A DNA stretch of 4,144 bases from a virus (Duplodnaviria > Heunggongvirae > Uroviricota > Caudoviricetes): IMG/VR virus record IMGVR_UViG_2639762987_000008; one strand, written 5' to 3'. A program made the translations under genes and the position numbers. Of the stretch, positions 1 to 4,144 are shown in pieces. The notes below the pieces were generated by a model. It did not search any database. It was not told the DNA's origin and saw nothing but the letters and a program-made list of their open reading frames with translations. Each line of letters opens with the position of its first letter. Positions within the stretch are counted from its first letter, which is position 1.

Positions 1-32
1 TTTTGAACGTTTCAGGCTATTTTTCTCGCGTT

Positions 33-69
33 AGGTTCCCGCACAGGTTCCCACGTTTTATGGGAACCC
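33..69. repeat. Short repeat cluster upstream of the integrase start: AGGTTCCC at 33-40 and 45-52 (direct), and GGGAACC at 62-68 forming a 7-bp inverted repeat with GGTTCCC at 46-52 (9-nt spacer). Possible integrase arm-type/att-proximal sites or an operator for int.
   Basis: Read directly from the sequence: ttAGGTTCCCgcacAGGTTCCCacgttttatGGGAACCcg. Function is inferred from position immediately 5' of the int start; no core att site can be defined from this window alone. Confidence 0.35.
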
Positions 70-88
70 GAAATAACGAGGTCGTGTA

Positions 89-1186
89 ATGGCGTACTAT
101 AACATAGAGAAACGACTAAAATCCGATGGCACACCACGCTATCGCTGTAATGTGATTATCAAAGAAAAAGGGGTTATCACTTACAGGGAAAGCAAAACAT
201 TCCCTAAACATGCTCATGCCAAAACATGGGGCACACAGAAAGTGATGGAATTAGATCTACATGGCATTCCATCATCAAATGCTGTTGACGGGCTTACAGT
301 CCGTGACTTACTACGCAAATATTTAAATGACCCAAATGCCGGAGGTAAAGCAGGCCGTACTAAAAGATATGTGCTGGAACTACTTATGGATAGTGACATT
401 TCTGCGATCAGACTATCTGAATTAACAGAAAATGACGTAATAGAACATTGCAGGTTGAGAAACAACGCCGGTGCAGGTCCAGCTACTGTTAGCCACGATG
501 TTAGTTATCTTGGCAGTGTTCTGGATGCAGCCAAACCTGTATACGGAATTAATTACACATCAAACCCAGCAAAAGCCGCTCGTCCATATCTACTTAAACT
601 TGGTTTAATTGGTAAATCAAATCGTCGTAATCGTAGACCAGCATCTGATGAACTAGACATGCTCATTGAAGGCCTTCAACAACGATCTACTCATAAATGC
701 TCAAAAATTCCGTTCGTTGATATCCTCAAATTTTCTGTGTGGTCCTGTATGCGAATCGGAGAAGTATGCCGGTTACGATGGGAAGATCTCGACCAGGAAC
801 AAAAATCTATACTAGTAAGAGACAGGAAAGATCCACGTAAAAAGGAAGGTAACCATATGAAAGTGGCCTTGCTTGGGGAAGCCTGGGATATCGTCCAACG
901 ACAACCCAAAAAATCTGAATTCATTTTTCCATACAACAGCACTTCTGTTACCGCAGGATTTCAGAGGGTAAGAAGCAAATTAGGTATTAAAGATCTGCGA
1001 TACCATGATTTGCGTAGAGAAGGGGCAAGTCGCTTATTTGAGGCTGGTTTTAGTATTGAGGAAGTCGCCCAGGTTACAGGGCATCGTTCATTAAACGTGC
1101 TATGGCAGGTATATACCGAACTGTATCCAAAATCTTTACATAATCGTTTTGAAGAACTCCAAAGGAGCAGAAATAAGACCTCTTGA
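89..1186 (+). CDS. int: Tyrosine site-specific recombinase (phage integrase family), 365 aa
   Basis: Full ORF with GAGG Shine-Dalgarno 7 nt upstream of the ATG. Box I-like segment (MRIGEVCRLRWEDLD), box II HDLR at 1004-1015, GHRS, and the putative catalytic Tyr in WQVYTE at 1112-1114. The N-terminus (YNIEKR...GTPRYR) is consistent with an arm-type DNA-binding domain. Antisense ORFs within it look spurious. Confidence 0.93.
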   Translation: MAYYNIEKRLKSDGTPRYRCNVIIKEKGVITYRESKTFPKHAHAKTWGTQKVMELDLHGIPSSNAVDGLTVRDLLRKYLNDPNAGGKAGRTKRYVLELLMDSDISAIRLSELTENDVIEHCRLRNNAGAGPATVSHDVSYLGSVLDAAKPVYGINYTSNPAKAARPYLLKLGLIGKSNRRNRRPASDELDMLIEGLQQRSTHKCSKIPFVDILKFSVWSCMRIGEVCRLRWEDLDQEQKSILVRDRKDPRKKEGNHMKVALLGEAWDIVQRQPKKSEFIFPYNSTSVTAGFQRVRSKLGIKDLRYHDLRREGASRLFEAGFSIEEVAQVTGHRSLNVLWQVYTELYPKSLHNRFEELQRSRNKTS

Positions 1187-1206
1187 CACTGTTTATTCAT
1201 ACAGTT
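1187..1206 (+). promoter_or_regulatory. LexA box 1 (SOS box), CACTGTTTATTCATACAGTT
   Basis: CTGT (1189-1192) - 8 nt - ACAG (1201-1204); about 15 of 20 positions match the E. coli-type consensus TACTGTATATATATACAGTA. Confidence 0.6.
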
Positions 1207-1214
1207 AAAAATAA

Positions 1215-1234
1215 TACTGTATACAAACACAGTA
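1215..1234 (+). promoter_or_regulatory. LexA box 2 (SOS box), TACTGTATACAAACACAGTA
   Basis: CTGT (1217-1220) - 8 nt - ACAG (1229-1232) with flanking TA/TA; about 17 of 20 positions match consensus. Lies 14 nt upstream of the ATG of a DinI-family gene, the expected context for a damage-inducible gene. Confidence 0.75.
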
Positions 1235-1247
1235 TAGAGGGATTTTT

Positions 1248-1496
1248 ATGCGTATTGAGATCTGCATAGCCAAAGAGAAAATGACTAAAATGCCAAACGG
1301 TGCTGTGGATGCGTTAAAGGAAGAATTAACTCGACGCATCAGTAAGCGTTATGACGATGTAGAGGTGATCGTAAAAGCCACCAGCAACGATGGCCTTTCT
1401 GTTACGCGCACCGCCGATAAAGATTCAGCTAAAACTTTTGTTCAGGAAACTCTGAAAGATACCTGGGAGTCTGCTGACGAGTGGTTTGTTCATTAA
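1248..1496 (+). CDS. dinI: DinI-family DNA-damage-inducible protein (RecA modulator), 82 aa
   Basis: Protein MRIEICIAK...GAVDAL.EEL.RRI...LSV...[17 protein letters not shown] aligns by eye along its whole length with E. coli DinI (MRIEVTIAK...GAIDALAGELSRRI...LSV...QETWESADDWFV). Preceded by an RBS and two LexA boxes. Confidence 0.9.
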
Positions 1497-1562
1497 TTAA
1501 TACGTAAAATCGATAACGGCTGGAAATCATTCAATACTCGCACTATCGGAAGTTCACCAGCC

Positions 1563-1603
1563 AGCCGCAGTATTCTGCCATGACAAGTTGCTGCGGCTTT
1601 TTA
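1563..1603 (+). terminator. Putative rho-independent terminator for the int-dinI transcription unit: stem AGCCGCAG (1563-1570) / CTGCGGCT (1591-1598) followed by TTTTTAT
   Basis: 8-bp GC-rich inverted repeat followed by a T-run on the + strand. The loop is long (20 nt), so stability is uncertain. It sits between the convergent dinI-like gene and the 3' end of the - strand operon (stop at 1607-1609). No comparable T-run follows the hairpin on the - strand. Confidence 0.45.
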
Positions 1604-2618: not shown

Positions 2619-2900
2619 TCACATCCAGCCACGAAGTTGATGCTCAACAACAATCGCGTATTTATCGAATATTGACGATTTTTTTGCATCATTAATGATG
2701 CGCACGTTTACAAAATATCCGTCTTCCTTAACACATACCGGTTCGCCATCTTCAGTCAGTTCTCCGCTTTCTTTGTACACGTTACCTATCACGTCAATAA
2801 GAATATCATCCTGCATCGACTCGTCATCATAATAGCCAATACTCTCCATAAAGGCCGAAAAGTCGGCCCTGTCTGCAAATTTGAGTGTTAAATCTTTCAT
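2619..2900 (-). CDS. Small acidic hypothetical protein, 93 aa, translationally coupled to the upstream fibre-like gene
   Basis: Its ATG (2900-2898) overlaps the TGA (2899-2897) of the upstream gene as ATGA; a GGGGAGAG RBS-like sequence lies upstream. Strongly Asp/Glu-rich. Followed 9 nt later by the next gene. No recognisable motif. Confidence 0.6.
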   Translation of the reverse strand: MKDLTLKFADRADFSAFMESIGYYDDESMQDDILIDVIGNVYKESGELTEDGEPVCVKEDGYFVNVRIINDAKKSSIFDKYAIVVEHQLRGWM

Positions 2901-4144
2901 TTAATACTCTCCCCCATTTGCGCATCAGTTAATTCTTTATGCCAGATACGCAGATTACGGATATGACCAAAAAGATGATACTCCCCATTAGTGCCCTGCC
3001 CTCCAATTCGCAATACTGCCCGTGGAACAATTGAAGTCCATGTTGTTTTTGCCGCAACAGATAATTCACCATTACATACGGCCTGAACATCTCCATCAGC
3101 GCCACAACGTAAGCCTGAAATGATTTTCCTCTGGGTTGTTGCCACATATTTATTACACCCTCCCATAGAAATAAAAGGAGAACCGGCATCAGAGAAATTA
3201 TTACCACGGAATCCATGCGTGAACAGACCATTTTCCTGATAATCTTTAACATTAAAGATTAATGGTGATTTGCTGGGAGGGATATCCCAGTTTTTATTAA
3301 CTTCAACAAGAGCACTGAATGGTAATCGGTGAATATTGTTTCTTACAGGTATTGTCACCATGTCGCTGGAGCGAGTGCCAGGAGCCCCTTCAGTAATGAT
3401 AAATGACGTCCTGTACGACCCAATCTCCGCCTGAGGCATCGCAATATCTAACGTAGAGCCATTGGGGATAATACTGATTCCAGGCATCGCCAGGATTTCA
3501 AATCTTGAGCTGATTATCATTTCCNNNNNNNNNNNNNNNNNNNNNNNNNNNNNNNNNNNNNNNNCTGCATCTGAATGAAAAACAAACGCACCATTATCAG
3601 ACATTTTTCCGAACCTTGCACGACACCGGGAATTATCACTTTTCGTCAGACACGATATCGTCGTATAAGAACCTGCCGGGCAGGTGTAAGCATCATTCGT
3701 GTTTACAGCAATTGCCTGATATCCTTGTGCTGTCGGATTTTCATTAATAACAGTTATCCTTCCATAGTTAAACCCATTATCACTGTCGAACGACTCAACA
3801 GACACACTACCCGTGTTATTCCATGCTTCTGGTGTATTTGAATTTCTGAAATAGTTTGTTCTCTGTCCTTCAATCAGCAAACCTTCTCGTTCAAATCGCG
3901 GTTCGTCAACTTCAGCAACGGTTAATACACCTGATTTATTAATGTATGTTGCACCTGATGCGCGTTTGAAGCTAACAACCTTATCGGATGGCATTTTAAT
4001 AACATCATCACCTACAGTTATTTGCTTATAACCAGGCGAAAAGCCAGCAAGCATATCCAGTGAATCGTTAAACGGTATCCACACATCAGGCAGTGGCTGT
4101 AAGACATATTTATACGGCTCTGCTGCCTGGCTTGCATACTCTCT
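2897..4144 (-). CDS. Phage tail-fibre / receptor-binding-like protein with C-terminal LamG-type (concanavalin-A-like lectin) domain; 5'-partial, as the reading frame stays open to the window edge at 4144
   Basis: The reading frame is open from 4144 (upstream of the GTG at 4084 there is no stop: ...REYASQAAEPYKYVLQPLPDV-WIPFNDSL...) to the TGA at 2897-2899. The C-terminal signature ...LRIGGQGTNGEYHLFGHIRNLRIWHKELTDAQM (nt about 2915-2977) resembles the LamG_3 family ending (F.G.IDEVRIWNRALS..EI). Frame is maintained across the N run at 3525-3564. Confidence 0.72.
   Translation of the reverse strand, partial: REYASQAAEPYKYVLQPLPDVWIPFNDSLDMLAGFSPGYKQITVGDDVIKMPSDKVVSFKRASGATYINKSGVLTVAEVDEPRFEREGLLIEGQRTNYFRNSNTPEAWNNTGSVSVESFDSDNGFNYGRITVINENPTAQGYQAIAVNTNDAYTCPAGSYTTISCLTKSDNSRCRARFGKMSDNGAFVFHSDAXXXXXXXXXXXXXXEMIISSRFEILAMPGISIIPNGSTLDIAMPQAEIGSYRTSFIITEGAPGTRSSDMVTIPVRNNIHRLPFSALVEVNKNWDIPPSKSPLIFNVKDYQENGLFTHGFRGNNFSDAGSPFISMGGCNKYVATTQRKIISGLRCGADGDVQAVCNGELSVAAKTTWTSIVPRAVLRIGGQGTNGEYHLFGHIRNLRIWHKELTDAQMGESIK
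3525..3564. other. Run of 40 ambiguous bases (N): masked or unresolved sequence inside the fibre-like CDS
   Basis: Seen directly. The flanking reading frame is conserved, so the run probably replaces 40 real bases rather than marking a gap of unknown size. Confidence 0.95.

Follow-up and report, generated by a model that had tools for sequence, protein, structure and literature searches.

The three copies of GGTTCCC that lie just ahead of the integrase gene in this stretch of viral DNA (4,144 nt, hereafter the window) are best explained as arm-type sites. We estimate a probability of roughly 0.8 that they make up the P' arm of an attP like that of phage mEp460, and that the integrase (Int) is a heterobivalent protein binding them in a model where arm and core DNA are bridged. 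The first-pass annotation had already raised arm-type sites within attP or attL as a reading of these repeats, and that reading gains support from a crossover core, from copies of the motif on the far arm, from family-wide covariation of the motif with the integrase, and from a homology boundary at the outermost copy. Sequence comparison identifies the window as attL, the junction on the int side, of a lambdoid prophage similar to mEp460 that has inserted into the 5' end of E. coli dusA.

Over its first 1240 nt the window shares 99.9% identity with many E. coli chromosomes and 96% with the lambdoid phage mEp460 and its relatives, among them the Stx phage 1720a-02, whose Int is 99% identical to the one encoded here; the remainder is taken up by a DinI-like gene and genes for tail fibres. 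In E. coli FDAARGOS_497 the dusA start codon, on the minus strand, ends one base before window position 1 (the dusA coding sequence has its end at position 6000 of locus L002, which is window position 0), and int begins 88 nt on. Immediately to the left of the window is the phage version of dusA codons 1-35 (L002 5897-6000), which ends at the crossover core. The other end of the prophage is about 40 kb off, where a displaced 105-nt fragment of the dusA 5' end marks attR. Since the phage carries its own copy of codons 1-35, the DusA of a lysogenic host would be expressed from 5' sequence brought in by the phage. Near attR a gene is annotated as a 'pyocin activator PrtN family protein' (L004 18388-18669; annotation only), and mEp460_025 carries pfam11112, by annotation a PrtN/RdfN-type excisionase gene; RdfN is the excisionase of dusA-specific elements such as IMEVchUSA3 (PMC8409611).

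We defined the core by comparing attB (from K-12), attP (from mEp460) and the attL and attR of the prophage. What all four share is TCGAGCAT, at window positions -103 to -96, so that an att core of the kind that the first-pass annotation proposed to look for upstream does exist, about 100 bp to the left of the window. In attP this core is flanked by inverted CCTA/TAGG. The suggestion that attB might be a tRNA 3' end, as it often is, did not hold for this element, which has its attB in a protein-coding gene, at the 5' end of dusA. The published 7-base core of phage 1720a-02 matches TCGAGCAT (PMC6328086), as do the core and att of the dusA-integrase (DAI) family of Farrugia et al. 2015 (PMC4482086), and the position of the core within dusA agrees with the conserved core and the 21-bp att (..CCAGTCGAGCAT..) of DAI elements. 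The prophage also displays the other traits of this family, in that dusA abuts int, attL contains the phage codons 1-35, and the displaced 105-nt dusA fragment is found at attR. Coordinates of the features discussed below are collected in Table 1.

Table 1. Features at the int end of the window, with positions counted from its first nucleotide.
Feature	Positions	Strand	Basis and remarks
P' arm spacer, from the phage-supplied dusA' start codon to P'1	1..32	.	invariant TATTTTT at 18-24
P'1, putative first direct arm-type repeat AGGTTCCC	33..40	+	+136 from core start; match to AGGTTCCC
P'2, putative second direct arm-type repeat AGGTTCCC	45..52	+	12 bp after P'1; +148 from core start
P'3, putative inverted copy, GGGAACCC on the + strand and GGGTTCCC on the - strand	62..69	-	+165 from core start
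GAGG, Shine-Dalgarno-like for int	78..81	+	7 nt ahead of ATG; read directly
int, dusA-associated tyrosine integrase, 365 aa	89..1186	+	ORF; PF00589, E 9.6e-21
Int N-domain, predicted three-stranded sheet plus helix, codons 1-58	89-262	+	AF2 models; proposed reader of the repeats

By direct reading, positions 31-70 of the window are ttAGGTTCCCgcacAGGTTCCCacgttttatGGGAACCCg. The arrangement first noticed in this region, two copies of GGTTCCC 12 bp apart and a GGGAACC after a 9-nt spacer, about 20 nt before int, is borne out by the exact positions: 4 nt separate the two direct copies, which are 12 bp apart from start to start, GGGAACC occupies 62-68 beyond a spacer at 53-61, and 19 nt intervene between the last repeat base and the int ATG at position 89. 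Counting both strands, the 4144-nt window has three occurrences of GGTTCCC where 0.30 would be expected, all of them inside 36 nt; a count of three was reached in 0 of 200 dinucleotide shuffles. P'1 is unchanged in five sequences of the AGGTTCCC class while the spacers vary, and about 80 relatives have a counterpart of it at the equivalent place. Of the copies, P'2 is the least conserved in relatives, where it reads AGG(T/C)(T/C)CCC. The concern that the start of the window might truncate the array turns out to be unfounded for the P' array, which is complete in the window; in mEp460, whose attP is contiguous (L001 3854-4032), the stretch from the core to position 33 has no additional copy with at most one mismatch. 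Further copies do exist beyond the core, on the other arm. The promoter regions of int and/or dusA' presumably fall within the spacer at 1..32, where the TATTTTT block, 9 nt 5' of P'1, is invariant in two motif classes.

The second arm supplies the further copies whose existence the first-pass annotation had made a point to check. In attR of the same prophage, AGGTTCCCaatAGGCTCCCA is found at -62/-51 from the core, in a segment that reads ..aacAGGTTCCCaatAGGCTCCCAcaaagtgtataactagttgtttttcaaaaacggtacatcctaTCGAGCAT, and in the attP of mEp460 GGGTTCCCaatAGGCTCCCA stands at the equivalent place, contiguous with the core. These P-arm copies are direct, have the orientation of the direct pair in the window, and start 62 and 51 nt ahead of the core, 11 bp apart. 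The entire unit thus spans about 235 bp, with two sites in the P arm (-62/-51) and three in the P' arm (+136/+148/+165), and a repeated motif that is distinct from the core-type sites is present on both arms around TCGAGCAT.

The outer limit of this unit is marked by an abrupt change in homology. On the P side, similarity between mEp460 and the prophage begins at the G of GGTTCCC, and there is none farther out, where the neighbouring genes differ. A 264-nt P-arm query matches 657 E. coli records, 208 of which cover at least 80% of the query. In about 440 of the 657 (about two thirds) the homology starts at query positions 194-196 and runs to the core, and query position 195 is the A of AGGTTCCC, that is, the outer edge of the outermost P-arm copy. 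As judged from this mosaic pattern, recombination has rearranged all that lies beyond the outer repeat and left the interior intact, which is indirect evidence that the arms are part of a functional att unit extending to the outer arm sites.

We considered how the repeats vary across the integrase family. An alignment of 67 Int homologues led to 80 genomic loci, with Int identities of 52-98%, in Enterobacterales, Vibrio, Shewanella, Colwellia and others. A direct pair with a spacing of 11-12 bp is found 35-60 nt before the int ATG in nearly all of these roughly 80 loci. Among the 85 loci and phage records scanned for it, an inverted copy (matching at 6 or more of 7 positions) follows the pair in 37 and is absent in 48. 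The motif itself is lineage-specific, and all copies shift together: AGGTTCCC, AGCACCCC, AGTACACC, AGGACACC, AGGATCCC and GGTATCCC define different lineages, and CTGCCCC, GGTGCCCC, GGGATACA and GGTTACA are further lineage motifs seen at the pair. Inside one motif class the repeats are invariant and the intervening spacers variable. Automatic detection at a spacing of 10-13 bp also caught another repeat family, with a 10-bp period, in some loci, and the final spacing was 11-12 bp; five loci (L022, L042, L053, L074 and L078) were mis-detected and were left out of the correlation test described below.

The repeats of this second family are direct (GGCTATTTT twice, TGAATTACG three times and TGAATTGCC three times) and occupy the equivalent of window positions 14-24 in relatives from Xenorhabdus, Vibrio, Shewanella and Pseudoalteromonas (L016, L021, L060, L086). 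They are candidates for promoter elements or for sites that an excisionase would bind.

Both arms could be read in eight elements: this prophage, mEp460, Yersinia YeP1, Pseudoalteromonas C5a, Burkholderia BcepIL02, Pseudomonas JBD90, a Vibrio PM2-like prophage and Klebsiella Kp4882-1. Shewanella phage M16-3 was left out of this set; the right end of its record does not end at att. The motif found on the int side scores two to three matches in the element's own P arm in all eight, as a direct pair 11 bp apart in seven of them. This pair is at -62/-51 in the gammaproteobacterial elements and at -80/-69 in BcepIL02 and JBD90, and the P arm of C5a has one direct match at -61 and one inverted match at -91. 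Motifs of a foreign class gave no match in most combinations of motif and P arm and at most one in the others, same-class pairs excepted, and a P-arm pair of the element's own motif arises in shuffled sequences 0-2 times per 20000.

One relative comes from outside the tailed phages. L090 (Vibrio phage 10N.286.54.F4_PE001, Vinavirales) is a 14.6-kb non-tailed PM2-like prophage with the same integrase family and the dusA core, and it also has the two-arm repeat layout, with an AGTACG-type motif. Since integrase family, core and layout are all shared by this prophage, the att/int module is common to tailed and non-tailed phages.

If the repeats are read by Int, their sequence should follow the part of the protein that contacts them, and the correlation points to the N-terminal domain. 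Across 75 loci, motif similarity correlates with the identity of Int residues 1-60 (r 0.56), and with the rest of the protein controlled for, the partial correlation between motif and N-domain is 0.545, a value reached in 0 of 2000 permutations. Conversely, the rest of the protein shows a partial r of -0.17 with the motif when the N-domain is controlled for, so that the site sequence covaries with the integrase through its N-domain specifically. Residues in the β2-β3 region sort by motif class: GKYxYRENRTF goes with AGCACCCC, GKHxHRETxTF with AGTACACC, GKRxxNESxTF with AGGACACC, and GVITYRESKTFP with AGGTTCCC.

In the AlphaFold (AF2) model, the strands of the N-domain comprise residues 2-10 (β1), 16-26 (β2) and 29-38 (β3), and the helix residues 41-58, with a pLDDT of 85.7 for the whole of Int and 90.9 for the N-domain alone. 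In structure comparisons the core-binding and catalytic body matches Tn1549 Int, λ Int, Cre and Xer, of which Tn1549 and λ Int are closest, and full-length λ Int chains align over 365-377 columns. The N-domain showed no clear homology to known arm-binding domains. A Foldseek search of the N-domain alone against the PDB gave nothing significant (the best match, dsRBD-like, had an E of 0.11), and the N-domains of λ and Tn916 Int were absent from its best 50 matches. Arm-DNA-bind_4 is the sole Pfam family that recurs among the N-domains, in 7 of 29 members with a best E of 0.0033, below threshold, and one N-domain relative weakly matches the Pfam family of the Tn916 Int DNA-binding domain (E 0.043); the N-domain of the window's own protein has no Pfam match at E≤10. 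Sequence searches of the PDB with Int returned only the catalytic domain (XerA and similar), and an N-domain profile against PDB sequences found nothing relevant. A tentative extension, which we hold to be possible rather than probable, is that DAI integrases use a formerly undescribed type of arm-binding N-domain in which β2-β3 residues map to site positions 3-6, and that the P' sites double as an operator coupling the recombination state to the expression of int and DusA.

The location of the repeats invites the question of whether they might instead be primarily a transcriptional operator, for Int or for some other phage protein, with no architectural role in recombination. They lie 20-56 nt 5' of the int ATG, in a divergent intergenic region of 88 nt; P'2 and P'3 make up the two halves, 7 bp each, of a palindrome interrupted by 9 nt; TATTTTT could be a -10 element, in which case the sites would be just past the transcription start; and elements that target dusA are known to furnish it with a new promoter (PMC8409611). 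We nevertheless regard such an exclusive operator as unlikely, given that the motif pair recurs beyond the core, near unrelated cargo genes and at a fixed distance from the core, that the conserved att module stops exactly at the far-arm pair, and that over half of the relatives lack the inverted copy. Promoter prediction gives it little to work with either: a strict scan of L002 5800-6300 for sigma-70 promoters and terminators returned nothing, a relaxed promoter scan returned just two weak 8/12 candidates, both inside dusA', and no convincing sigma-70 promoter is predicted. An operator function is plausible as a secondary role compatible with arm sites, not as their sole role. It is also quite improbable, more so than an exclusive operator, that the repeats bind the recombination directionality factor, a PrtN/RdfN-type excisionase, and not Int. 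Excisionases do recognise directly repeated tandem sites in att arms, and both the PrtN-family gene near attR and the assignment of RdfN as excisionase of dusA-specific elements (PMC8409611) make such a protein a natural candidate. An excisionase also co-evolves with its element, so that covariation taken alone would accommodate it as the binder too. What weighs against it is that motif similarity follows the N-terminal domain of Int specifically, that the sites are on both arms with the outermost setting the att boundary, which is the usual pattern of Int arm sites (excisionase sites are usually one-armed), and that the separate 10-bp-period repeats beside the arm sites in relatives are the better candidate for excisionase binding.

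The palindrome formed by P'2 and P'3 could alternatively function as a stem-loop, either as a hairpin of the RNA (in the 5' UTR of int or the dusA' leader) or as a DNA cruciform, with P'1 incidental. Taken by itself the palindrome folds well, as GGTTCCCA-N7-TGGGAACC reaches -12.6 kcal/mol (z -3.9) and a 62-mer of the minus strand has a z of -3.26, but the plus-strand 62-mer has a z of only -0.29, there is no T-run and no terminator call, and a search of window positions 1-1600 against Rfam at E≤1 found no match. In one close relative, L005, P'2 and P'3 have changed together (T>C with A>G), a double change with the look of compensation in a hairpin, and P'1 has not; the matched change, AGGTCCCC with GGGGACC, is at 2945-2972 of this locus, from Escherichia sp. 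MOD1-EC7003, whose Int is 98% identical. Templated mutation within a quasi-palindrome can yield a paired change of this kind and may be its origin here. Across the loci, the inverted copy complements the distal P'1 (6.70 of 7 positions) better than the adjacent P'2 (6.27 of 7), and P'1 is the better partner in 13 loci against 3 for P'2, whereas a stem under selection would favour the reverse. The stem is broken in L006, L007 and L063, an inverted copy matching at 6 or more of 7 positions is found in just the 37 of 85 loci noted above, and the copies on the other arm are left unaccounted for. Preferential pairing of adjacent arms, kept by compensatory change, as a structured RNA, terminator or hairpin would display it, is not the pattern that emerged, and we consider a functional stem-loop highly improbable.

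Taking the repeats as arm-type sites, we can outline how the attachment site might operate. The catalytic and core-binding domains of Int would act at the CCTA/TAGG-flanked TCGAGCAT inside dusA, and we infer that residues 1-58 bind the 8-bp arm sites, two in the P arm and three in the P' arm. Bending of the DNA would fold the arms back, so that Int protomers could bridge arm and core as in λ, and the resulting intasome of about 235 bp would confer directionality, with a PrtN/RdfN-type excisionase needed for excision. IHF may be responsible for some of this bending: an IHF-like site, WATCAANNNNTTR with one mismatch, is found at -33 on the minus strand in the P arms of the E. coli element and of YeP1, individually near chance, and was not found in the P arms of C5a or of Vibrio PE001. 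On integration, dusA would trade its own 5' end for the one carried by the phage, the P' set would stay beside int in attL, that is, in the window, and the P set would move to attR some 40 kb distant. Int occupancy of the P' sites may also damp transcription of int and/or dusA', because these sites extend no farther than 56 nt from the int ATG and about 70 nt from the start of the divergent dusA'.

The attP of phage λ contains the arm-type sites P1, P2 and P'1-P'3, which are bound by the N-terminal domain of λ Int. The layout described here resembles it in many respects. In both, an attP of about 235-240 bp has a small core and two arms, along which a motif that bears no relation to the core-type sites is repeated (two plus three copies in the present case), neighbouring copies being about one helical turn from each other. 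In the present element a candidate IHF-like site is between arm and core, Int is predicted to have a small extra N-terminal domain of a sheet plus a helix, and a separate excisionase would serve excision. The differences are equally clear. The motif AGGTTCCC is not the λ arm consensus, and the N-domains have no detectable sequence homology. It is the int side that has the long arm (about 170 bp), and this arm includes the replacement 5' end of dusA, which amounts to 105 nt of coding sequence. One of the P' copies is inverted, and int is transcribed away from att, with the arm sites in its leader or promoter region.

The closest comparison is with the DAI elements, of which the window's prophage is a member: they insert about 100 nt into dusA and supply a new dusA 5' end, they share a 7-8 bp core in a 21-bp semiconserved att, and they have a PrtN/RdfN-type gene near the other end. 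The papers on these elements describe the core or the 21-bp att, together with the excisionase and promoters for IMEVchUSA3 (PMC4482086, PMC6328086, PMC8409611), and in the literature searched we found no description of arm-type sites for dusA integrases or for mEp460. Direct repeats also serve as arm sites in the heterobivalent integrases of Tn916/Tn1549 and of the P2/HP1 type, from which the present system differs in target, motif and arm arrangement; the resemblance is at the level of the fold only. Taken together, these comparisons indicate that the prophage is a DAI member whose recombination system very probably works like the λ-type heterobivalent one.

To a specialist in site-specific recombination, arm-type sites at this position are expected and unsurprising. 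Their interest is in the setting, since in hundreds of species of proteobacteria dusA is a hot spot at which prophages, Stx phages and islands (resistance or mobilizable) integrate. What had previously been described for dusA elements is the 21-bp core only, and a full attP layout can now be proposed. It would allow such elements to be delimited exactly, as the sites at -62/-51, the core, a stretch of about 135 bp with the new dusA 5' end in it, and the two or three sites next to int. The motif class would predict which integrases are cross-compatible, the layout would define a minimal attP for integration vectors, and swaps of the N-domain suggest themselves as a way to re-target the arms. 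A testable link between Int occupancy and the expression of int and dusA is also raised; if an operator role holds, the recombination state would be tied to the host tRNA-modifying enzyme DusA, with the promoter and first 35 codons supplied by the phage.

Several observations concern the window downstream of int. Two LexA-box-like sites, CTGTTTATTCATACAG at 1189-1204 and CTGTATACAAACACAG at 1217-1232, lie 5' of the DinI-like gene (1248-1496) and bracket TTGACA(1183-1188)-N17-TAAAAA, a promoter annotated in mEp460. This suggests that the phage dinI is under SOS control. The int stop codon is inside the -35 hexamer of this dinI promoter. On the 3' side of the DinI-like gene, at about 1564-1604, GCCGCAG and CTGCGGC are separated by 19 nt and followed by TTTTT, which is terminator-like with a long loop, and RefSeq annotates a pseudogene fragment of a capsid protein nearby (L002 7493-7573). 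Forty consecutive N, either masked or unresolved, at 3525-3564 fall inside a minus-strand tail-fibre ORF at 2897-4084.
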